A stretch of DNA of 32,000 nt from Nitrososphaerota archaeon. Lineage in GTDB: Archaea > Thermoproteota > Nitrososphaeria > Nitrososphaerales > UBA57. Each line of letters opens with the position of its first letter. The stretch's first letter is position 1. The notes below the pieces were generated by a model. It did no database searches. It was not told where the DNA came from and saw nothing but the letters and a program-made list of their open reading frames with translations. A program made the position numbers and the translations under genes. Below, one piece after another: positions 5,767-31,781 of the stretch. The stretch lies in NCBI GenBank assembly GCA_002713205.1, contig PAVW01000018.1, positions 15,184 to 47,183 of the forward strand. Reading direction: 5' to 3'.

Positions 5767-6453
5767 TTATAATTGTGAAAATATTGATTTTATCTTCTCT
5801 TCATTATTTTTTTTAGTTATTCCGAGAATGATATTTTCTCGTTTTGATAATTCTATTGCTAAATCGTCAACCTGATCTGGTCCATGTAGTATTACCATTC
5901 GAGGTTTTAATCGTGAAACTCTTATTGCAACTAATGGAGACCTTCCAAGTCCAACTCTGGTAAAAATTAGAACGCGTTCGGTTGTAGCTCCAAATATTTT
6001 ATAAAAATCAATTCCTGATAGAAGATAAATTGTGTTTATGCTATCTAAAATTGTATATCCATATAATTTTGTTTTTAATTGATCTTCACCATTCAATATT
6101 TTTGCATTTAATAGTGTTTTAAGTTTTAATGCTGTTAATGGTTTGTTAAATTCTCCTATTCCTATTATTGCTGAATGTTCTTCTTTTAATAATCGATTTA
6201 ATGTTTTATTATTTGTTTTATCAACTTCTACAAGTGCTTTAATATATTTTTTTATAAATATGACGCCCGGTGAACTTCTTCTTCCACTTTCATAATCACT
6301 TAGTACTGAAGGTGACATATTCATTTGTTTCGCTAAAATTATTTGTTTAATTTTTAATCTTTGTCTCCATATCTTTAACATTTGTCCTGGATTATTATTT
6401 ATTACAACATCTCCTGCAATTTTTGATATTATTTCAAGATCTGTTTGTGACAC
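5767..6453 (-). CDS. archaeal XRE-type HTH transcriptional regulator with C-terminal domain (COG1395-like)
   Basis: HTH segment LKIKQIILAKQMNMSPSVLSDYESGRR followed by an approximately 140-aa C-terminal domain. GTG start, since the only nearby upstream ATG is out of frame. It begins 45 nt downstream of herA. Confidence 0.55.
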   Translation of the reverse strand: MSQTDLEIISKIAGDVVINNNPGQMLKIWRQRLKIKQIILAKQMNMSPSVLSDYESGRRSSPGVIFIKKYIKALVEVDKTNNKTLNRLLKEEHSAIIGIGEFNKPLTALKLKTLLNAKILNGEDQLKTKLYGYTILDSINTIYLLSGIDFYKIFGATTERVLIFTRVGLGRSPLVAIRVSRLKPRMVILHGPDQVDDLAIELSKRENIILGITKKNNEEKIKSIFSQL

Positions 6454-6498: not shown

Positions 6499-7941
6499 TT
6501 AATTAAAAAATAATTTTGTTTCGCCCATTGCATGCCATTTACTTTCTGATATTTTTACAACTACTGGTAGATCATTGACTGTTTTTCCTAAAACTAAGCA
6601 ATTTTTTGATGGTAGTGTGCGCACTATTGATTTTACTGTATCTGCATCAACCATACTGGCTTTTGATACTAATTCAATATCAGTATCATTAGTAAAATTA
6701 AATAGAAAAATATTATCTGCTTGTCTATATATTCCTTGATCTATGGCATCGGGTTGATTTGTAATAAAAGTTGTAAATATTCCAAAATGTCTCATTCTTG
6801 TAATTATATCATCCCAATATGTATCTCGTAAGTATAGATGTGCTTCCTCTGCAAATAAAAATACCGGTTTAATGTCTTTTTTTTCTAATAAATTGACTAA
6901 TTTCGATAAAATTATTTCTACAGTAATTCTTCGTAATAGTGGTGATGCTTCAGATAACGAAATTATAATTATATTTCCATCGGGTTGTGTATTTAGTAAT
7001 TCTTCTAATTTAATCGAATTATTGTTATCTGTTAAAATACCTGTTGATTGTAAAGTATGAAATCGTGATATTAATGCATCTCTGACAAATTCATTGCCTT
7101 TCCAATTAAAAATATGATTTCTCAATTCATCTATATTTAATGAATTCTTCGTTTTTAATAATTTGAAAATACGTAAAAATTCTCGTAATGACGCTCCTGG
7201 TAATTGTAATGAATGAGTTAAAATATTACATAAGCAATTTAGTTCAAGATATTGCAAGTTGAATTTTAATGATTTACCGGGAACTAATCTTGTTATTTTT
7301 CTTGATAAATTACTAGTCGTTCCATTTTTATTTTTTGTTAATCCCTTGTATTCATCATTTAAATCAAAAATAATTATTGGGGCCCCTAATTCTGCTAAAT
7401 TAGCTGCTAATAGTTTAGATAAATGTGATTTTCCAGATTCTTTTTTCCCAGTTATTATATTTAATTTTCCATCTAAAGCTTCTGCATAAATTTTAAATAT
7501 TTCATTTGATGCACCTGTTCCTAATTCTATTTCTCTTTTTCCTTCTCTTTTTGCAATTTCAAATAATTCATTATATGATATTTTTTTAATTTTTGTATAA
7601 ACTCTTGATGGCAGTAAATTATTTGAATATGTTAACGTTGAATTTTTTATCATTCCTCTGATTTTACATTTTAATATTCTTGAATCTCTAATAAACATTG
7701 AAATATTTTCTATTTCTAATGATTCTCCTTGAATTCCTTCTAACGTAGATTCTATTACTTCGTCTCTTAAGATTTCTTCAGATAATCCTGGAATGTCAAT
7801 ATATGTTTCTTCATATATTTGCGCTAAAATATTTATTTTTTTTGATGTATCTTCTAACTGTAAATAATCTCCTTGATGTACTTGTTCACTTGGAGTTGAT
7901 AATATTAATACTTCATTACCTGATTTTCCTAATATTTTCAT
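6499..7941 (-). CDS. herA: HerA-type hexameric DNA translocase/helicase ATPase
   Basis: HAS-barrel-like N-terminus, Walker A GKKESGKS, IIIFDLNDEY, Walker B FLFAEEAHLY, FITNQP, and C-terminal LGKTVNDLPVVVKI. These parallel Sulfolobus HerA segments as I remember them (ATGSGKS, LIFDYHGEY, VIEEAHVF, IVSQRP, IGKIVKLPAVVKI). Confidence 0.85.
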   Translation of the reverse strand: MKILGKSGNEVLILSTPSEQVHQGDYLQLEDTSKKINILAQIYEETYIDIPGLSEEILRDEVIESTLEGIQGESLEIENISMFIRDSRILKCKIRGMIKNSTLTYSNNLLPSRVYTKIKKISYNELFEIAKREGKREIELGTGASNEIFKIYAEALDGKLNIITGKKESGKSHLSKLLAANLAELGAPIIIFDLNDEYKGLTKNKNGTTSNLSRKITRLVPGKSLKFNLQYLELNCLCNILTHSLQLPGASLREFLRIFKLLKTKNSLNIDELRNHIFNWKGNEFVRDALISRFHTLQSTGILTDNNNSIKLEELLNTQPDGNIIIISLSEASPLLRRITVEIILSKLVNLLEKKDIKPVFLFAEEAHLYLRDTYWDDIITRMRHFGIFTTFITNQPDAIDQGIYRQADNIFLFNFTNDTDIELVSKASMVDADTVKSIVRTLPSKNCLVLGKTVNDLPVVVKISESKWHAMGETKLFFN

Positions 7942-8198
7942 TTTTTAAAATCCATATTTTTGTATATTTCAAATTTTAATATTTTATTTTCAATTTGATT
8001 TAATTTTAATTCTGTTTCTTCAATTAATAGTTCGTTTTTTTCTCTCTTATAATTTTCAATTCCAATAATATCGAATTCATTTTCTTTTTGATAATATTCT
8101 GTAAGTTTTTCATATAGATATTTATATTCTATTATATTTTTGTTATGTTCTTTTTCTTTTATTTCTGTTAATAATATGTAATTTTTCATTTTTATCAA
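7938..8198 (-). CDS. 83-86 aa K/E/N-rich predicted coiled-coil protein, unknown function
   Basis: The ORF sits exactly between nurA and herA. Its stop overlaps the herA ATG (ATGA, 7938-7941). Start is either TTG 8198, overlapping the nurA stop, or ATG 8189. No motif recognised. Confidence 0.55.
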   Translation of the reverse strand: MIKMKNYILLTEIKEKEHNKNIIEYKYLYEKLTEYYQKENEFDIIGIENYKREKNELLIEETELKLNQIENKILKFEIYKNMDFKK

Positions 8199-9205
8199 TT
8201 TTTATTTTTTAATGTCCAATACCATCTAAGTATTGTATTTCGTGTATTTTCACTTGGTATTTCTTTTAATGAAAAATTTTTACATAAATAGCTTTTAAAG
8301 CATACATCTTCAAAATTTGTAAATATTGATATATTATGCGCTAATATTAATGATTCAGGATATCCTCTATAATATGAATCGTTATAACTTAAATAACCTA
8401 ATTCAAATTTTATATTTTTTGCTATACTTTCCGTTTTAAATACTAATCCATTATCTCTCATTTTTAATAACATTAATTCTTTTTTTATGATGTTTTTTTT
8501 ATTTGATTTTATTCTGAATATAAATGGTGATCCTTTTATTGATTTTAATTTAGGAAATGTAAAAATTATTGATTTATCTTTTGTTGTTTTTGATATTCCA
8601 ATTAAACTATTATTATTTTCATTTGCTTTTTTTAATATTATATCTCCATCTTGGGCTGAAGTAATAATATTTAATGTTCCATCAACTAATATTATGCAAT
8701 TATTTAACGAATTTGATAATTCTTTAATTAAGATTTTTTCTAATGTATTTCTAATATGTGATTCAATTATAGATGAATTATTATTAAATTGACTTAATTT
8801 AATAAATTGAAATTGTGTTAATGTCTTTTCATTATAATAATTTAAAAATGGTCCAAATTGTAAATATTTTATTGGTTTTCCATTTAATGATAAAACAGCA
8901 GCTACTCTCGAAGCATAAATTGTTCCACTATCTAAATCATATATTGGAATACATGATGAATCGATTGCAACAATTAATTTTTTTTCTTTTATTGTTTTAA
9001 CATGTTCTATATTGAAATTATGTGAATTGGTATGTTCTATTATTGGTTGACGATGAGCAGAGGAGCTGAAAATAACGTTTTTCCCCGTTATTTCCTTCAT
9101 ATTGAACTTTATTTTATTATTAATTTCTTTATTTATTTTATCAATGATTAAGGTTGGTTCGTTTTTTAAAAAATTTATTTGTATATTGTTTAATTGCGTG
9201 GCCAT
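8195..9205 (-). CDS. nurA: NurA-family 5'-3' nuclease
   Basis: Three NurA signature segments: LIVAIDSSC (cf. FVAIDGGS), CIILVDGTLN (cf. YILMDGSLS) and RGYPESLILAHNISIF (cf. KGYPFPLLKAHMDVRF). The start is taken at ATG 9205, with 9217 as an alternative. The ORF-track extension to 9295 overlaps the divergent gene. Confidence 0.8.
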   Translation of the reverse strand: MATQLNNIQINFLKNEPTLIIDKINKEINNKIKFNMKEITGKNVIFSSSAHRQPIIEHTNSHNFNIEHVKTIKEKKLIVAIDSSCIPIYDLDSGTIYASRVAAVLSLNGKPIKYLQFGPFLNYYNEKTLTQFQFIKLSQFNNNSSIIESHIRNTLEKILIKELSNSLNNCIILVDGTLNIITSAQDGDIILKKANENNNSLIGISKTTKDKSIIFTFPKLKSIKGSPFIFRIKSNKKNIIKKELMLLKMRDNGLVFKTESIAKNIKFELGYLSYNDSYYRGYPESLILAHNISIFTNFEDVCFKSYLCKNFSLKEIPSENTRNTILRWYWTLKNKN

Positions 9206-9260
9206 GTTGAACAACATGAATAAGAAACATTCAAATATAAATGTTGTGCAACATGCACAA
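9203..9260. promoter_or_regulatory. Bidirectional control region with a duplicated 16-bp palindrome (operator-like)
   Basis: CATGTTG-aa-CAACATG (9203-9218) and AATGTTG-tg-CAACATG (9240-9255) are 37 bp apart centre to centre. A TTGTGCA-aca-TGCACAA palindrome (9244-9260) overlaps the second site. An AAATATAAA TATA-like element lies at 9233-9241. Confidence 0.6.
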
Positions 9261-9279
9261 TTAATGGATTTGTTATGAT

Positions 9280-9726
9280 TTGGATTTAGAAACAAATAAA
9301 GTTACTATAAAATTAAAACGAGGAAGTTGGGAAGTTGAAATCACTTGCCCAGAGGATAAAGTAAAACAAATTGTCGAAAATGTATTAAGTGGCTTGGATA
9401 AGGACAAATCTATTAAACAGGAAATTCAAGATCTTCCAGCTGTTCATTCTATGACCAATGATGAAATTATGAAAGCCGACGTAGTAACAAAATCCAAAGA
9501 TCATGTTATTTGTAGGGATTTAATTCAATTATTATGGCAGGAAAATTGGTTTCAAACTGAAAAAAATCTTTCTAATGTTTATGAGGAATTGGCCAGACGT
9601 GGTTATCATTATGATAAAACTAGTATATCGCATTCATTAGCTGATTTAGTTAGAGAAACTACTTTAACACGTGTTGGTTCTATAAGAAATTATCGATATA
9701 TACAAAAAAGACCTCCATCACCATAA
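9280..9726 (+). CDS. two-domain protein, N-terminal beta-rich module + C-terminal winged-helix (paralog 1 of 3)
   Basis: 148 aa. TTG is the only canonical start after the in-frame TAA at 9262-9264. The N-terminus is VTIKLKRGSWEVEITCPEDKVKQIVENVL. The C-terminus LSNVYEELARRGYHYDKTSISHSLADLVRETTLTRVGSIRNYRYI has a wHTH pattern. Confidence 0.6.
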   Translation: MDLETNKVTIKLKRGSWEVEITCPEDKVKQIVENVLSGLDKDKSIKQEIQDLPAVHSMTNDEIMKADVVTKSKDHVICRDLIQLLWQENWFQTEKNLSNVYEELARRGYHYDKTSISHSLADLVRETTLTRVGSIRNYRYIQKRPPSP

Positions 9727-9758
9727 AAGTATATTAATTTATTTTAGAAATATATAGT

Positions 9759-10250
9759 ATGAAAGAATCTCCTATTAAAATAAAACTTCATATATCTAAT
9801 GCTGAAATTGAATTAGAATGTGCTTTAGAAGAAATGTCTGAAGTCCTCAAATTTATTCCTGAATTAATTGGTATTCTTTCTAATAATGTAAAAAGTATTC
9901 CAAAATCGTTAACACCTGTTTTAAACAAGTCTGATATTAGTGATGATCTTCCTGATATTTCTGTTAGTAGATCAGATTCTCTAACTGCCATTTTAATTAA
10001 ATTGTTTAGTAGTTCGTGGTCATCTAGTCCAAAAAAATTAAATGAAATTCGCGAAGCTCTTAACTCTTATGGACTAATATATCCGAAACAATCCGTTGCA
10101 GTAACTCTTTTACGAATGGCTCAGTCTGGTAAATTACGACGATTTAAAAGTAGTAGCGGTGAATATGTTTATACTCCATCAACTTCTCTTTTTTCAACTT
10201 CTAATTCATTAGTCTCTAATTCATTAAATATTTCATCTAAATCAGCATGA
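9759..10250 (+). CDS. two-domain protein, N-terminal beta-rich module + C-terminal winged-helix (paralog 2 of 3)
   Basis: 163 aa. IKIKLHISNAEIELECALEEMSEVLKFIPEL aligns to paralog 1. The C-terminus W..SPKKLNEIREALNSYGLIYPKQSVAVTLLRMAQSGKLRRFKSSSGEYVYT aligns to the paralog 1 wHTH. The tail is Ser-rich. Confidence 0.65.
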   Translation: MKESPIKIKLHISNAEIELECALEEMSEVLKFIPELIGILSNNVKSIPKSLTPVLNKSDISDDLPDISVSRSDSLTAILIKLFSSSWSSSPKKLNEIREALNSYGLIYPKQSVAVTLLRMAQSGKLRRFKSSSGEYVYTPSTSLFSTSNSLVSNSLNISSKSA

Positions 10251-10257
10251 TTATGGA

Positions 10258-10758
10258 ATGATAAAATTGACTGATATTATTGTTTCAATAACATTTGAAG
10301 ACACAAAAATTGATTTTAAAGGAGAACCTAATGATGTTCTAGTTTCAATAAATGAATTCTTTTTAAAACAAATTCCAAATCTTGATTTAGCTAAAAAAAT
10401 TTCTGTAAATTATTCATTGGAACAATTAATATCTATTTTTTCTGAATATATCAAATTAACTCCAGAAGGTCCTAGAATCTGGATAGAAAATAAGAAATTA
10501 AGTGATAGGGAGAAAATATGTTTGCAATTAATTGCTTTTCATATAGGTTATTTGGCTAAAAATTCAAATAATTCACAAATTAGTATGAATATTATTTCAA
10601 ATCTTACAGGTCTTAACTCTAAATCAATTAGTTCCAGATTAAGTGAATTACAAAAATTGGGTTATGTCAAAAAACATAATATTGATAATAAAATTTTATT
10701 TCAAATAACAACACAAGGTATTTATTGGTTTGAACAAATTATTATTAAAAAAGTATGA
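10258..10758 (+). CDS. two-domain protein, N-terminal beta-rich module + C-terminal winged-helix (paralog 3 of 3, more divergent)
   Basis: 166 aa. IIVSITFEDTKIDFKGEPNDVLVSINEFFLKQI, and a C-terminal MNIISNLTGLNSKSISSRLSELQKLGYVKKHNIDNKILFQIT (helix-turn-helix plus wing). It begins 7 nt after paralog 2. Confidence 0.65.
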   Translation: MIKLTDIIVSITFEDTKIDFKGEPNDVLVSINEFFLKQIPNLDLAKKISVNYSLEQLISIFSEYIKLTPEGPRIWIENKKLSDREKICLQLIAFHIGYLAKNSNNSQISMNIISNLTGLNSKSISSRLSELQKLGYVKKHNIDNKILFQITTQGIYWFEQIIIKKV

Positions 10759-10785
10759 TTATGTATTTTTAATGTGAGTTGTGTT

Positions 10786-11175
10786 ATGAAAAAATTAACT
10801 ATAGTTTTGAGTTTATTAACAATATCCCTTGGTCTTTTAGGCGGACAAGCAGCTAATAATATATTTGAAGAAGTTGAAATGTTAGAAGAACAAAATCTGA
10901 ATCCAGCTAATAATGAAAATAGAGCTCCTGCTTCACCAGAATATATTGGAGCCCTTTATGACGAAGGATCTTTTGTTGCATTTTTTAGCCGAGCTTTAAT
11001 ATTTCTTGGTGTATTTTTCACCCTTTATGGTTTTATCGATGACTTAAAAAAACTTAAACGAAAAGATATATCAAAAAATTCTGAGAATACAGTAAAACTT
11101 GAAGAAACATATGAAGAATTTAAACTAAGAAAGAAAAAATTTCGAGAAGCGCAGCGAAAACAAGTTTCTAATTAA
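10786..11175 (+). CDS. secreted/type-I membrane protein (signal peptide, one C-proximal TM helix, K/R/E-rich cytoplasmic tail)
   Basis: MKKLTIVLSLLTISLGLLGG signal-like N-terminus, an acidic ectodomain, the TM helix ALIFLGVFFTLYGFI, then KKLKRKD..KKKFREAQRK. ATG 10786 is preferred over the ORF-track GTG at 10774. It is the last gene of the wHTH operon. Confidence 0.6.
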   Translation: MKKLTIVLSLLTISLGLLGGQAANNIFEEVEMLEEQNLNPANNENRAPASPEYIGALYDEGSFVAFFSRALIFLGVFFTLYGFIDDLKKLKRKDISKNSENTVKLEETYEEFKLRKKKFREAQRKQVSN

Positions 11176-11179
11176 ATAT

Positions 11180-13006
11180 TTATTTCGAATCTGTAACAAT
11201 TATATTTTTTTGTTGTACTAATGCTTTTATTATATTCTTTCCTAAATCTGAAGATTTTGATACTCGAATTTTATTTTTTTTACCAACTGTAGCTGAAAAA
11301 ATATATTCATTGTTTATATATACATTTAGTTTTTTACTATGTAATTTTCTATTAAATAAAAAATCTAATGAATTTCCTGATTCATGAATAGTATGATTAA
11401 TTTTTTTTCCTAATGAATTATCAAACGGTAATACATCTATACTGATTCCTAATTGCGCTTCTATTTTGTTTATTTCTGATCCTCCTTTACCTATTATTCT
11501 TGGAATAAATGATTTATCTATTTTTACAATTGCATGTGATGCTGATGTGAATTTAATTTCTGCTTGTGTGTTATAATCATTAAAAATATTCTGTAATTCT
11601 TTTTTCACAAATTTTATTTTACTAGTTTCTTTTTCTTCTAATAACGCAACCGGTATGATAATATTTTCATCTCCATATGTATAAATCTCATATTCCAGTT
11701 TTTCATTTTCAAAATCTCGAATTTCTACAACTGGCCTTGTTAAATCTCTTTCAGTCATTCCAGTTGGAACTTTCATAACTAATTCTAATTGATAAATTTT
11801 TGAAATATCTCCATTATTTATGAATATTACAGTATCGATTATGTTACATATCATGCCTATTTCTATACGTCCGATGAATCTTTGGATAGAATTAACAGGA
11901 TTACTTGCATGAACAACACCTATCATTCCTACTCCTGAAAGGCGAAGATCTGAAAAAATCATAAAATCTTTTGATTTTCTAACTTCATCAAATACAGTAT
12001 AATCTGGTCTTACTAATAATAGTACTTCTGCTGTTTTTTCAAAATCACCTTCTAATGGCCCGTATTGTGAAATTTCTGAATCAACTTGTAAATCTTTTGG
12101 AGATTCTATTGTTTTTACAATTTTATTTTTTTTTGAATAAAATTCAGCTAAACTTGATGCAAATGTGCTTTTACCTGAACCAGGAGGTCCTGATACCAAA
12201 ATTCCTTCTGCTGCTGATTCAATTCTATTTTGTAATTTTGGTGAAATTGTATAGTCATCTAGTTTGAGTTTTTTTATTGGTTTTATTATAGTTACTTCTA
12301 TTTTATCTGAAAATGGAGGATTTGTAATAGCAATTCTAAATGAATCAAGTTGAATTACTTTTGCACCATTCTTCATTATTGGCCTATCAACTTTTTTTGC
12401 AATTCTACTAAATTCTTCAATTTCTTTAATAATTTTTTCTATTTCTTCTTTGGTAACTGAATTACCTATCGATTTCATTTTTACTTTACCTGGTTTTCCT
12501 ATTTTAATTCGCACAGGAATTCCTTCAGTTATATGAACACTTGTTGTATTCTTTTCAAAAAATTTTAAAAATTTTAATTCATTTCTATCGATTTTAGTTT
12601 CTATATATTTGACTTCTGCTCCTAATACTTCTGCAACAATTGCTTGTACATAATCTCCTGTATACAATAATGCTTTGTTTTTTATTGCTTCATCTCTAAT
12701 TATTCCATCAATTCTTCCACTTTTTGCTAATTTAATATCTTCTAATGATGGTTTTGAACCTAAATATTTGAATATAATTTTTTTCTGATCTGATAATTTT
12801 CTAAGTTTTTTTAATTCTTCTAAACCTAAAAATCCCACTTCTCTATGTTTTGATGCTTGTGATTGTAATTCATCTAATACGGCTATTGGAATTATAATTT
12901 CACAGTTTTTTAATTCTTTTTTATTTATATTATTTGACAGAATGCCATTAATAATTATACTTGTATCCGGCACAATTTTAATTTTTTTAGTTTTATTTTT
13001 TACCAA
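11180..13006 (-). CDS. PIN domain - PilT-like ATPase - KH domain protein (COG1855 family)
   Basis: N-terminal PIN (KIVPDTSIIINGIL...IIPIAVLDELQ), Walker A SGPPGSGKSTFA, VFDEVR, and a C-terminal KH motif RIIGKGGSEINKIE. TTG start, with in-frame stops immediately upstream. Confidence 0.85.
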   Translation of the reverse strand: MVKNKTKKIKIVPDTSIIINGILSNNINKKELKNCEIIIPIAVLDELQSQASKHREVGFLGLEELKKLRKLSDQKKIIFKYLGSKPSLEDIKLAKSGRIDGIIRDEAIKNKALLYTGDYVQAIVAEVLGAEVKYIETKIDRNELKFLKFFEKNTTSVHITEGIPVRIKIGKPGKVKMKSIGNSVTKEEIEKIIKEIEEFSRIAKKVDRPIMKNGAKVIQLDSFRIAITNPPFSDKIEVTIIKPIKKLKLDDYTISPKLQNRIESAAEGILVSGPPGSGKSTFASSLAEFYSKKNKIVKTIESPKDLQVDSEISQYGPLEGDFEKTAEVLLLVRPDYTVFDEVRKSKDFMIFSDLRLSGVGMIGVVHASNPVNSIQRFIGRIEIGMICNIIDTVIFINNGDISKIYQLELVMKVPTGMTERDLTRPVVEIRDFENEKLEYEIYTYGDENIIIPVALLEEKETSKIKFVKKELQNIFNDYNTQAEIKFTSASHAIVKIDKSFIPRIIGKGGSEINKIEAQLGISIDVLPFDNSLGKKINHTIHESGNSLDFLFNRKLHSKKLNVYINNEYIFSATVGKKNKIRVSKSSDLGKNIIKALVQQKNIIVTDSK

Positions 13007-13098: not shown

Positions 13099-14577
13099 TT
13101 GAATTCATTAACAAAATATGAAGATATATTAATATCTGTAATTAAAGAGGCTCAAAAACACAATGTTGAATTTGTTGAGGCTAGATTTCATTCTACTTGG
13201 AATTTAGTGGCAATATTGAATAATGGTAAATCTGAACCATCAATTTCTTCTGAAACTCAGGGTATTGGAATTCGTATTATTTATGACGGTGTGATGATTT
13301 TTGCTTCAATTAATTCTTATGATTCAATTCCACAACTTATTGAAAAATCAATTTCAACCGCAAAGTCTTCTAAGAAACTTTCAAAAAATCCTATTAAATT
13401 TTCTTCTGAAAAATCAATAAATAAAACATGGGCTGCAGAAGAAAAAGAAAATTTAAAAAATGTAAATATAGATGAAATGATTTCTGAACTTAATAATATT
13501 GATGAATATGTAAAATCATTTAGTTCTGATGTTTCTTTTCCAAAACGAACTCTTATTCTTTCGAATTCAATTGAAGAAAAGTTCTATATTAATAGTGAAG
13601 GCAGTCGTATATTAAGTCGAGTACCTAGAGTTGAATTTCATAGTTATTTAGCTGCTAAAACTAATGGTTCTTTATCAGCAATTTCTATTCCTGCAGGGTA
13701 TGCAGGACTTGGTGGAACTGGTGGTTGGGAAACTATCAAAACATTTAATTTTGATTCATACATTCCTGAACAATTAAAAAATTCTTCTAAATCTATTACA
13801 TCAAAATTAGTAAAATTTGATAATGATGTTGATGTAATTGTTGGCCCTGAGATTGCAGGAATAGTTGCACATGAATCATGTGGACATCCATTTGAAGCTG
13901 ATCGTATTCTGGGTCGAGAAGCAGCTCAAGCAGGTGAATCATACTTAGACTTCGATAGTGTTGAAAAAAAATTTAATTTTGGTACTATTGAAGAAATTGA
14001 TAAATCTGAAGCTTTTGTTAGTGACGATCCAACACTTTCTGGTTCTATGGGTTTTTATTTATTTGATGATGAAGGTGTCGAAGCACACAAACGCACTTTA
14101 CTTCAAGGTGGAATTGTCACTGATCTATTACATAATCGTGAAACATCATTTCAAAAAGATATTCAAAGTAATGCTTCATCACGAAGTGTCGACTATGACC
14201 GTGAACCTATAATCAGAATGTCTAATACATTTATTGAACCAGGGGATTATGATTTTGAAGAATTGGTCGCTGATATAAAATATGGAATTTATATTAAGAA
14301 TTTTATGGAATGGAATATTAATGATACACGAGAGCATCAGAAATATGTTGGTTTGGAAGCATATCTTATTAAAAATGGTATTAAGGATGTTAATGTAAAA
14401 TCTCCTGTTCTTGAACTAACTGCCAAAAAATTCTGGTCTAGTATAGATGGACGTTCTAAAACTTTGAAATTTTCTTCTGCTACATGTGGTAAAGGAGAAC
14501 CAATGCAAGGAGCTCCAGTTTGGACTGGTGGCCCTCACGTCAGGCTGCGAAATCTTCGGGTGGGAAGTCATTCATGA
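13099..14577 (+). CDS. tldD: TldD-family metalloprotease (peptidase U62)
   Basis: HExxxGH motif (AHESCGHPFEAD), FDDEG, and the C-terminal GxC..G..VWTGGP pattern. TTG start, with an in-frame TAA at 13090-13092. Confidence 0.88.
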   Translation: MNSLTKYEDILISVIKEAQKHNVEFVEARFHSTWNLVAILNNGKSEPSISSETQGIGIRIIYDGVMIFASINSYDSIPQLIEKSISTAKSSKKLSKNPIKFSSEKSINKTWAAEEKENLKNVNIDEMISELNNIDEYVKSFSSDVSFPKRTLILSNSIEEKFYINSEGSRILSRVPRVEFHSYLAAKTNGSLSAISIPAGYAGLGGTGGWETIKTFNFDSYIPEQLKNSSKSITSKLVKFDNDVDVIVGPEIAGIVAHESCGHPFEADRILGREAAQAGESYLDFDSVEKKFNFGTIEEIDKSEAFVSDDPTLSGSMGFYLFDDEGVEAHKRTLLQGGIVTDLLHNRETSFQKDIQSNASSRSVDYDREPIIRMSNTFIEPGDYDFEELVADIKYGIYIKNFMEWNINDTREHQKYVGLEAYLIKNGIKDVNVKSPVLELTAKKFWSSIDGRSKTLKFSSATCGKGEPMQGAPVWTGGPHVRLRNLRVGSHS

Positions 14578-15902
14578 CATTGGATTATCTTTTATCTCTT
14601 CTTGAAAATAAAATTTCATCTATTACTTATGACGATTTTTCATTTATTATTGTTAAAGATGTTGAAGATTTGATAAGATTTAGTAATAATGAAATTACCG
14701 TTTTTGCTACAACTGAAAATATTAGTATTGAAATATACATAGGTAAAGATAAAAAACGCACTATTGGCGAAACAACAAATCTTGACGAACAATCTATTTC
14801 AAATTTTATAAATTTATTGTCTAAACAATGTGCTGATTCTCCAATAAATAATGATTATACTAGCCTTCCTCCTGGTCCATTTAATTATGATCATAAAAAT
14901 ATGATTAATGATGAACTGTCAATTGATCATGAATCTATGATTGATCATGTCGAGGTTTCAATTAATTCTGCGTTGAAAGCTGGTGCTTCAAGAGTTTCTG
15001 GTTCTCTCACGAGTTCCAAGTCTGAAATATTATTAAAAACATCTAATGGTACCGAATTAACGGATAAATATAATACCAATTTATTAAATCTTCGAGCATT
15101 TAGCACAACTAATTCAAGTGGTCATGGTTTATCTTGTTCTTCATCTATACGAGATATTGATTCAGAAAATGCAGGTATAAAAGCAGGCGAATATGCAAAA
15201 TTATCTATTAATCCAAAAAATTGTGATATTGGTAAATATGATATATTGTTTACACCTACAGTTGCCGCGGATATATTTCAACATGTTGGATATTCGGCAT
15301 CTGCTTTTTCTGTAGATGCAGGAACATCATTTCTCACAAATAAAATAAATGAAAAAATTTCATCAGACAAACTTTCCATAACTGATGTTGGTAACCCAAT
15401 TAATGGTATATATGGACGTATTTTTGATAATGAAGGCATGCCTACAAAATCTACTACTATAATTAAAAATGGTTTTATGAAAAGTTATCTTCATAATATA
15501 ACCACATCAAATAAGTATAACGTTGAATCTACTGGAAATGCAGGAATAATTGATCCTAGTTGTTGGAATTTAGATGTTTCTTCTGGTGATATGACTTTTG
15601 ATGAACAATTATCATCTATTAAAAATGGATTATTGATTACTAATAATTGGTATACTAGATTTCAAAATCAAATTCTTGGATTATATTCAACCATTCCACG
15701 AGATGCATGTTTTGTAATTAAAAATGGGGAAATTAGTGATTCTATTCATAATATTCGTATCAGTGATAACTTGCCCAGACAATTATTAAATATTGAATCA
15801 TTGTCAAAACAACGTGAATGGATTAAATGGTGGGAAGTAGAAATTCCAACATTATCCCCTTCAGTAATAATTAATAATGTACCTATTACTCGTTCTATGT
15901 AA
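14574..15902 (+). CDS. pmbA: PmbA/TldE-family protein (peptidase U62, TldD partner)
   Basis: Paralogous U62 fold without HExxxGH (FDNEGMPT, NNWYTRF). ATG 14574 overlaps the tldD stop (ATGA). The ORF-track start at 14520 lies inside tldD. Confidence 0.85.
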   Translation: MTLDYLLSLLENKISSITYDDFSFIIVKDVEDLIRFSNNEITVFATTENISIEIYIGKDKKRTIGETTNLDEQSISNFINLLSKQCADSPINNDYTSLPPGPFNYDHKNMINDELSIDHESMIDHVEVSINSALKAGASRVSGSLTSSKSEILLKTSNGTELTDKYNTNLLNLRAFSTTNSSGHGLSCSSSIRDIDSENAGIKAGEYAKLSINPKNCDIGKYDILFTPTVAADIFQHVGYSASAFSVDAGTSFLTNKINEKISSDKLSITDVGNPINGIYGRIFDNEGMPTKSTTIIKNGFMKSYLHNITTSNKYNVESTGNAGIIDPSCWNLDVSSGDMTFDEQLSSIKNGLLITNNWYTRFQNQILGLYSTIPRDACFVIKNGEISDSIHNIRISDNLPRQLLNIESLSKQREWIKWWEVEIPTLSPSVIINNVPITRSM

Positions 15903-31692: not shown

Positions 31693-31781
31693 GGGTTCGT
31701 AGTCTAGTTTGGATCAAGGCACTGATGAATAGTGTAGGCCTCCGGAGCCGGATATCGTGGGTTCAAGTCCCACCGAACCCG
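31693..31781 (+). tRNA. tRNA-Arg(CCG) with a 13-nt intron (31724-31736) inside the 5' strand of the anticodon stem
   Basis: Folded by hand. Acceptor GGGTTCG/CGAACCC, D stem GTCT/AGGC, T arm GTGGG-TTCAAGT-CCCAC, and discriminator G. After removing GATGAATAGTGTA the anticodon arm is CTGGC-CTCCGGA-GCCGG (anticodon CCG at 31742-31744). No CCA is encoded, and T runs follow. Confidence 0.8.

Follow-up and report, generated by a model that had tools for sequence, protein, structure and literature searches.

A conserved operator pair in a bidirectional promoter joins a candidate winged-helix regulator family to a divergent NurA–HerA pair in Nitrososphaeria

The NurA–HerA pair and its shared promoter

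In Sulfolobus and Pyrococcus, herA and nurA lie in one operon with mre11 and rad50. Soils, oceans and sediments count Nitrososphaeria and Bathyarchaeia among their most abundant archaea, and the searched literature held no description of how recombination or repair genes are controlled in these two groups, the archaeal DNA-damage regulators found there being those of Sulfolobales. Here, we analysed a 32-kb stretch of contig PAVW01000018.1 (hereafter the window, meaning the whole stretch of DNA), the host of which is a marine member of Nitrososphaeria (Thaumarchaeota). Its minus strand carries a NurA-type nuclease gene (nurA, 8195–9205), a micro-gene (7938–8189) and a HerA-type ATPase gene (herA, 6499–7941), which face, across a spacer of 74 bp (9206–9279), four plus-strand genes termed P4 (9280–9726), P5 (9759–10250), P6 (10258–10758) and P7 (10774–11175), separated by gaps of 32, 7 and 15 nt. 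The initial annotation had listed these seven open reading frames (ORFs), the 74-bp divergent spacer and gaps of 7–32 nt, and all of them are present as described. The spacer contains two copies of the palindrome ATGTTG-N2-CAACAT, with 37 bp between their centres; the deeply conserved two-operator bidirectional promoter that they appear to form, joining an undescribed winged-helix family to a divergent NurA–HerA pair, is the main feature that the initial annotation overlooked and the most solid new finding of this analysis.

The pair resembles the archaeal HerA–NurA end-resection complex of Sulfolobus, Pyrococcus and Thermococcus in several respects: its HerA-type ATPase, of similar length (480 vs 500 amino acids (aa)), has an N-terminal barrel and the Walker A/B motifs, its NurA domain contains the catalytic residues D-E-D-H, and its nurA gene lies directly upstream of herA, to which it is translationally coupled in the window's relatives. 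HerA, a predicted hexameric ATPase, scored 44.5 bits against Pfam DUF87 (E 2.6e-11; cut-off 23.2), and its Walker A (G165/K171/S172) and Walker B (E365-E366) residues belong to the 102 residues invariant across eight orthologues; gathering score and motifs together place it among the HerA/FtsK-type ATPases. The 336-aa NurA came barely over the threshold of Pfam NurA (PF09376, 28 bits vs a cut-off of 21) and had no match among the NCBIfam models. Across 10 orthologues, its residues D82, E156, D175 and H290 do not vary; they fall in the order of the catalytic residues of Pyrococcus NurA (PfNurA D51/E105/D126/H411; PMC3300031), the correspondence being one of motif order, not of structural superposition. 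With the Pfam cut-offs passed and the Walker and D-E-D-H residues kept, the identities first given to HerA and NurA stand, and the pair is predicted from its sequence to be catalytically intact.

Unlike the canonical herA–nurA–mre11–rad50 operon, the locus has neither mre11 nor rad50 nearby: no Mre11 or Rad50 domain was found in the scanned ORFs of ≥100 aa within the 32-kb window. The window HerA also differs from canonical HerA in its scores. Its closest solved structure is SsoHerA (4D2I; E 9e-10, 41 bits, aligned over most of its length), and it reached 20–45 bits against NCBIfam models with cut-offs of 800–970, failing both canonical repair equivalogs (NF040937, 42.7 bits vs 800; NF040819, 19.6 bits vs 970) as well as the anti-phage HerA model (NF042943, 44.7 bits vs 800). 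On these scores, it appears to be a divergent paralogue and not the canonical repair HerA equivalog. Entries in Table S3 of Abby et al. (2020) assign two herA/nurA family sets to the ancestor of ammonia-oxidising archaea, one of which was kept alongside mre11 and rad50, while the other (with a nurA lacking an arCOG) was lost in the ancestor of Nitrosopumilales/Nitrosotaleales. The window-type pair occurs in Nitrososphaera and in non-ammonia-oxidising lineages, and none of its named matches belonged to Nitrosopumilales. Because the window HerA fails the equivalog cut-offs and this distribution matches those entries, we infer that the window pair is the second, non-canonical pair, separate from the herA–nurA–mre11–rad50 set, which would explain the absence of mre11 and rad50 nearby. 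The locus would thereby give a handle on the unexplained second NurA–HerA that ammonia oxidisers keep or lose.

Three elements without assigned strand were recognised at the spacer: operator site 1 (9204–9217, ATGTTGAACAACAT), a palindrome overlapping the nurA start codon; an A/T-rich TATA-like box (9233–9241, AAATATAAA) between the operators; and operator site 2 (9241–9254, ATGTTGTGCAACAT), which abuts the box. The 14-bp palindrome pattern can also be written ATGTTGNNCAACAT, with the 10-base core TGTTGNNCAACA. The exact core occurs twice in the window, both times within the spacer, and 87 times in the 861 kb of the window and the fetched loci, compared with 0.78 copies expected from base composition. 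Every core copy with a scored position sits just upstream of a P4 gene; in the 80 loci obtained by scanning metagenomes with a P4 profile, all 73 core copies lie ≤250 bp upstream of P4, as do 120 of the 124 copies of the 14-mer with ≤1 mismatch. At the same tolerance, the operator is present in 46/46 non-redundant NurA-bearing loci, 42 of which have two or more sites, and site 1 overlaps the nurA ATG in 45 of the 46; the N-terminus of NurA (MxTQLN) is conserved. The sites are spaced by 37–38 bp in 46 of the 51 loci carrying two. A separate check found sites in the P4–NurA spacer of 13/13 Nitrososphaeria loci, most of them fetched via HerA.

When 16 divergent loci were compared by anchoring, nothing was conserved beyond the two pairs of half-sites, the A/T box, which also keeps its position, and the first nurA codons; the 2-nt palindrome spacer varies freely, without compensatory changes, and the footprint is kept even where P4 identity is down to 46%. 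In the metagenome loci, no operator was found at a P5–P6 promoter or elsewhere beyond the region upstream of P4, save for one lineage's match in a coding sequence, and the palindrome looks strictly local within the regions scored. Taken together, the operator pair amounts to a phylogenetic footprint, marking a dedicated cis-element within a bidirectional promoter. Judging by archaeal promoter geometry, the TATA-like box probably serves both divergent genes, with a likely leaderless nurA transcript starting at site 1 and the P4 transcription start likely covered by site 2. Such an arrangement of two operators around one TATA-like box could be a clean model for archaeal promoter control. A bacterial sigma-70 promoter scan, whose model is not applicable to archaea, returned 46 promoters vs 42 expected, that is, background.

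Winged-helix proteins P4, P5 and P6 and their conserved neighbourhood

In the AlphaFold2 model of P4, built on a 40-sequence alignment, a beta-hairpin and helix (residues 7–43) are followed by a disordered linker and a C-terminal winged helix with a predicted local distance difference test score (pLDDT) of >90. P6 has the same two-domain layout (pLDDT 81.9), an N-terminal module like that of P4 preceding a MarR/ArsR-like winged helix; in both proteins, the winged helix consists of three helices and a beta wing with pLDDT of ~90 or more through most of the domain. Foldseek matched P4 to the winged helices of BlaI, Fur, PadR and Hop2, of which the last, a DNA-binding domain in a recombination factor, came top though weakly (E 0.014), and P6 to MarR and the pNOB8 centromere-binding protein. 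The probability of 1.0 to BlaI, Fur, PadR and MarR assigns the winged-helix fold to P4 and P6, and P6 additionally scored just over the cut-off of Pfam HTH_24 (22.3 vs 21.9 bits). At the sequence level, P5 is a divergent P4 paralogue (BLASTP E 3e-4, phmmer E 4e-6), while the pairwise similarity of P6 to either is not significant; comparison of P6 with P4/P5 at the profile level gave no better than E 4e-4 (probability 34%), confined to 34 N-terminal columns, and the full-length proteins gave E 0.008 (probability 5%). The description of the three proteins as mutually similar therefore holds for the sequences of P4 and P5 and for the shared predicted architecture, not for P6 in pairwise comparison.

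P5 gave a ratio of nonsynonymous to synonymous substitution rates (dN/dS) of 0.22 against the closely related locus L013 (fetched loci carry L numbers). The winged helix of P4 is nearly invariant, including T114, S117, H118 and S119 of the recognition helix, which parallels the invariance of the operator. In 40 members of the P4 family, two cysteines do not vary, C23 where the N-terminal hairpin ends and C78 where the winged helix begins, and neither does H118; the three residues could form a redox or metal switch.

The P4 profile yielded 1749 hits, including NVIE_013310 of Nitrososphaera viennensis and NTE_02726 of N. evergladensis, and the matches listed are all unnamed or 'hypothetical', one evident mis-annotation aside. 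Of the 1090 hits of the P6 profile, those listed are likewise unnamed or 'hypothetical'. At E ≤1e-10, an exhaustive P6 search gave 191 representatives, most of which are 160–180 aa long and have a single domain set. The named P6-profile proteins come from Nitrososphaeria or Bathyarchaeia, with the exception of two metagenome-assembled genomes (MAGs) labelled Dormibacteraeota, which are probably mis-binned. In Pfam, NCBIfam, PADLOC and PHROGs, P4, P5, P7 and the micro-gene product had no matches, P6 had generic winged-helix matches only, and no curated family covers the two-domain layout, in line with the earlier remark that none of these five proteins was recognised as a characterised family. 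A viral or mobile-element origin was considered and rejected, as no P4 relatives were found in IMG/VR. The searched literature contained neither a known regulator of nurA or herA in Thaumarchaeota nor reports on the N. viennensis locus tags. Based on sequence and modelled fold, the P4-type proteins seem to constitute a previously undescribed family of small winged-helix proteins, and P4 and P6 are candidate regulators for which no curated model exists.

A HerA scan of species-representative genomes returned 10 loci, seven of Nitrososphaeria and three of Bathyarchaeia type, in all of which nurA lies immediately upstream of herA, usually with a 4-bp overlap. Members of the winged-helix family adjoin nurA–herA in each of them and in L099–L102, where the gene order (HerA-side) is GatD-GatE, (P5), P6, opposite-strand P4, then NurA and HerA; L016, obtained with a P6 query, and L018, a Nitrososphaera locus obtained with a P4 query, share this core arrangement. 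A P4 homologue is divergent from nurA in 7/7 Nitrososphaeria loci of the HerA scan, and a P6 homologue is adjacent in two of the seven. The Bathyarchaeia-type loci have three paralogous two-domain proteins (166, 182 and 178 aa) preceding nurA–herA on the same strand. In the metagenome scan, with neighbours counted in evaluable loci only, P6 is adjacent to P4 in 58/58 loci, P5 is present beside P4 in 35/48, and NurA lies upstream of P4 in 40/57, being absent in the other 17. The outer context, with GatDE on one flank and HTH_3, DUF92 and ProRS on the other, is conserved across distant Nitrososphaeria.

The winged-helix genes are thus a class-wide conserved neighbourhood of the window-type nurA–herA, within core-genome synteny, and the linkage is strong though not absolute. 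The initial annotation had suggested that the triplet may be lineage-specific partners of NurA–HerA: the linkage is borne out by the 10 HerA loci, L099–L102 and the 40/57 P4 loci, whereas the lineage restriction gives way to a distribution throughout Nitrososphaeria and into Bathyarchaeia. It had also proposed that neighbourhoods be examined for co-occurrence with herA/nurA, which is seen for the triplet; the 86-aa gene occurs in close relatives only. Nor do the five small proteins behave as one module, since the micro-gene is restricted to close relatives, P7 tracks the trio, and the trio persists without nurA–herA.

The palindrome ATGTTG-N2-CAACAT was not found in the Bathyarchaeia loci, where a P4 orthologue was likewise not detectable. 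There, a direct repeat, GAGTAACACCTTG, occurs twice, ~73 bp apart (L010, ~7580–7700; L012, ~7990–8110), upstream of the second of the three winged-helix paralogues and just before a TATA-like TTATAT; it may be the Bathyarchaeia's own operator. One locus of this type, L008 (DASPWZ010000005.1), carries the label 'Candidatus Dormiibacterota bacterium', yet both its genes and its sequence are almost the same as those of the Bathyarchaeota loci L009 and L010; its MAG was probably mis-binned or mislabelled.

Proposed regulation and alternative explanations

The initial annotation left open whether the trio acts in targeting, regulation or anchoring, and regulation fits best with the conserved palindromic operators in the shared promoter. 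On balance, we consider it probable that nurA–herA and the P4 operon have a dedicated regulator in P4, possibly acting together with P5 and P6. P4 is the gene adjoining the operators in every locus scored, and it is the favoured regulator because it is divergent from nurA, the palindromes suit a dimeric winged helix, there is one site per likely transcription start, and the two sites flank the shared TATA-like box; moreover, the Bathyarchaeia, which have no detectable P4 orthologue, also lack the palindrome. In archaea, repressors bound on the TATA box or immediately downstream of it prevent TBP/TFB or RNA polymerase from being recruited. In the proposed mechanism, nurA(–micro-gene)–herA and the divergent P4–P5–P6–P7 operon would fire from one short bidirectional promoter, and a P4 winged-helix dimer would bind both palindromes, with P5 and P6 possibly joining it via the shared N-terminal beta-hairpin/helix domain. 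Bound P4 would stop recruitment of the transcription machinery in both directions, acting as a repressor rather than an activator, so that the nuclease–helicase would be kept off and the regulator auto-limited until a signal releases P4.

Such a layout resembles that of the local repressors of the MarR, PadR, BlaI/MecI and ArsR types in its winged-helix fold, in a regulator gene divergent from its target and in short palindromes over promoter and start sites, from which autoregulation appears likely. Unlike these repressors, the P4-type proteins have an N-terminal beta-hairpin and helix and a long disordered linker that match no curated family, and the window has a set of two or three paralogues with two operators around one shared TATA-like box. 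No divergent winged-helix genes or operator pair of this kind were found described for the thermophile operons. The Sulfolobales DNA-damage regulators Orc1-2, TFB3 and ArnA are described as global and as having motifs of their own (PMC6061795, PMC6101594, PMC10470591). They would share with the window the transcriptional control of archaeal DNA-repair genes if its inducing signal is DNA damage; they differ in belonging to unrelated protein families, and, as far as those accounts go, in their global reach, the window operator looking strictly local.

Several points weigh against a regulator dedicated to NurA–HerA. A factor other than P4 could bind the palindromes, P4 being assigned as the binder by inference; two or three paralogous regulators are not obviously needed for one regulon; and the Bathyarchaeia paralogues are co-operonic with nurA–herA, which is equally typical of subunits. 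Equating the window pair with the second families of Abby et al. (2020) is a matter of distribution, not of sequence comparison. Furthermore, a sister marine clade (L017, L024–L039), which shares the window's flanking synteny and has a P4 63–66% identical to that of the window, keeps P4–P5–P6–P7 but has no nurA or herA at the site, and it retains degenerate, one-mismatch versions of both operator sites. In L011, a lone P6 homologue (8001–8522, 43% identical) has no NurA, HerA or P4 within 8 kb. Because this clade and L011 keep family members without nurA–herA, the trio is not strictly dependent on NurA–HerA, and its role is not limited to that pair. Such persistence speaks against the trio being obligate subunits and would suit a regulator able to gain other targets.

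In the sister clade, nurA–herA is replaced by a conserved gene of 85–86 aa (L017, 6675–6932, minus strand; also in L024–L039 and L081), the ATG of which lies inside the one-mismatch site 1, exactly at the place of the nurA ATG. Its product contains …IKLNELGKTYFE…LNAWAIWLEEN and has no family assignment; homology to the window micro-gene was considered and rejected (hhalign E 0.29). The lone P6 gene of L011 sits among lipoate-ligase and luciferase-like genes, on a contig that also encodes CdhC.

Among the alternatives, the best placed, though unlikely in our view, is that P4, P5 and P6 are stoichiometric partners of NurA–HerA, a DNA-recognition or loading module replacing Mre11–Rad50, with autoregulation at most secondary. 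The Bathyarchaeia operon of three paralogues with nurA–herA is what such a module would look like, the invariable company of P6 and frequent company of P5 with P4 agree with it, the shared N-terminal domain suggests hetero-oligomers, and the top Foldseek match of P4, a weak one, is to the recombination factor Hop2. This is countered by the clade that keeps trio and operators without nurA–herA at the site, to which no HerA could be assigned among the 120 best HerA relatives listed, by the 17 P4 loci without an upstream NurA, and by the palindromes, which alone explain the tight physical linkage. A mixed possibility, which we hold to be somewhat more doubtful still, is that a P4–P5–P6 hetero-oligomer both gates transcription and targets or loads a paralogous, Mre11–Rad50-independent NurA–HerA across Nitrososphaeria and Bathyarchaeia, perhaps switched by the two invariant P4 cysteines as a redox or damage sensor.

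It is improbable that the trio are unrelated regulators merely neighbouring nurA–herA and that the palindromes have a different binder, for instance the HTH_3 protein whose gene lies downstream of herA. In many loci that gene comes after herA, and in L017 it comes after the 85-aa gene; the lone P6 homologue shows that family members can stand elsewhere. Yet Nitrososphaera (L018) has the operator without an adjacent HTH_3 gene, the operator always lies directly beside P4 with no other copy in the regions with positions scored, and the arrangement is conserved from hot-spring and Methylarchaceae loci (L002–L005) to Nitrososphaera. Binding by another factor is accordingly less parsimonious than binding by P4.

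HerA-type ATPases are also found in the SIR2–HerA and DUF4297–HerA systems, with which the window shares a HerA-family ATPase and a nuclease-type partner uncoupled from Mre11–Rad50, and the initial annotation had drawn this anti-phage analogy. A defence system against phages or plasmids, with NurA as effector and the winged-helix proteins as sensors, is very improbable here. HerA does match the PADLOC HerA and mad8 models (E down to 7.7e-19), the NCBIfam anti-phage model is matched about as weakly as the repair HerA models, and tight repression would suit a toxic effector. The analogy is not supported by the context: core-genome synteny extends from marine lineages to Nitrososphaera, where a mobile or variable island would be expected for defence, and the base composition of the nurA–herA locus is the same as that of the flanking DNA. 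Nor do the components support it, since the partner is NurA, Pfam found no SIR2 or DUF4297 partner in the locus, neither NurA nor the small proteins matched PADLOC, P4 has no viral relatives in IMG/VR, and HerA, at 480 aa, has the length of archaeal HerA vs 585–696 aa in the PDB-matched defence-type HerA-like chains. Least credible of all is translational control by RNA hairpins sequestering the nurA start codon, for although the nurA AUG lies in site 1 and a terminator-like hairpin was called at 9244–9260, two nucleotides are too short a spacer for a good RNA loop, site 2 shows the same degree of conservation without lying over the P4 start codon, the half-sites are conserved with a free spacer and no compensatory changes, and, given the geometry around the TATA-like box, transcription probably starts within or beyond the sites.

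The micro-gene, P7 and the genomic setting

The micro-gene between nurA and herA encodes a K/E/N-rich protein that had been read as 86 aa from a TTG at 8198. The ATG at 8189, 5 nt after the nurA stop, is conserved, and since the TTG reads CTA in the close relative L013, the gene most likely starts at the ATG, giving 83 aa. The minus-strand genes had been seen as chained by overlapping stop and start codons; with this start, the overlap of the micro-gene and herA (ATGA) remains and that of nurA and the micro-gene becomes the 5-nt gap. Comparison with the L013 copy (80% aa identity, dN/dS 0.13), together with a frame that was open in 0/20,000 shuffles, marks it as a real gene and not a chance ORF. 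It was seen only in close relatives of the window, L013–L015 (P6 identity to the window 89%) and L020–L022; more distant loci have no micro-gene, and nurA and herA overlap or abut there, suggesting a recent insertion between otherwise translationally coupled genes.

P7, the last gene of the P4 operon, encodes a small membrane protein with a basic tail. It had been described as a signal-peptide/single-transmembrane protein; the membrane assignment agrees with our hydropathy analysis, which gave two hydrophobic segments (~residues 1–27 and 64–88). The gene was listed with a GTG start at 10774, and its L013 counterpart begins at a Met matching the ATG at 10786 (MKK…), where P7 probably starts. 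With 61% identity and a dN/dS of 0.66 against L013, it is weakly constrained and fast-evolving. P7 is found in marine lineages and in none of the terrestrial loci, and because a weak homologue (E 1e-4) is present in L017, which has no nurA–herA, it travels with the trio and not with NurA–HerA.

The window is AT-rich (19–38% guanine plus cytosine per 1-kb step). All loci related to it belong to Nitrososphaeria or Bathyarchaeia, and its P6 is identical to a protein in a 'Thaumarchaeota archaeon' MAG and ~98–99% identical to Tara Oceans sequences. The locus is flanked by the housekeeping genes ProRS, DUF92, TldD/PmbA, thermosome, Cdc48, ABCE1, TBP and ArgRS, and domain scans of the window agree with the first reading of housekeeping flanks without mre11 or rad50.

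An HTH_3 (XRE-type) gene of 228 aa (5767–6453, minus strand) follows herA on its strand after 45 bp and may be part of the same transcription unit; it also trails herA in L002–L004, L013, L016 and L099, and the 85-aa gene in L017. Convergent with P7 lies a gene for a PIN-ATPase-KH protein (11180–13006, minus strand), which scored 715 bits against NCBIfam PRK13764 and 412 bits, with a cut-off of 800, against the model of PINA, an ATPase of Holliday-junction branch migration. The locus thereby has a second neighbour related to recombination, which is adjacent in the marine lineages only (the window, L013 and L017). The sole Rfam match of the window is a single tRNA (31693–31781, plus strand, 39.3 bits). 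A pair of TldD/PmbA-type metallopeptidase genes (13099–14577 and 14520–15902, plus strand) is listed with a 58-bp overlap that arises from an upstream TTG start; because the overlap is only 4 bp in L013, the true start of the second gene is probably further downstream than the listed TTG.

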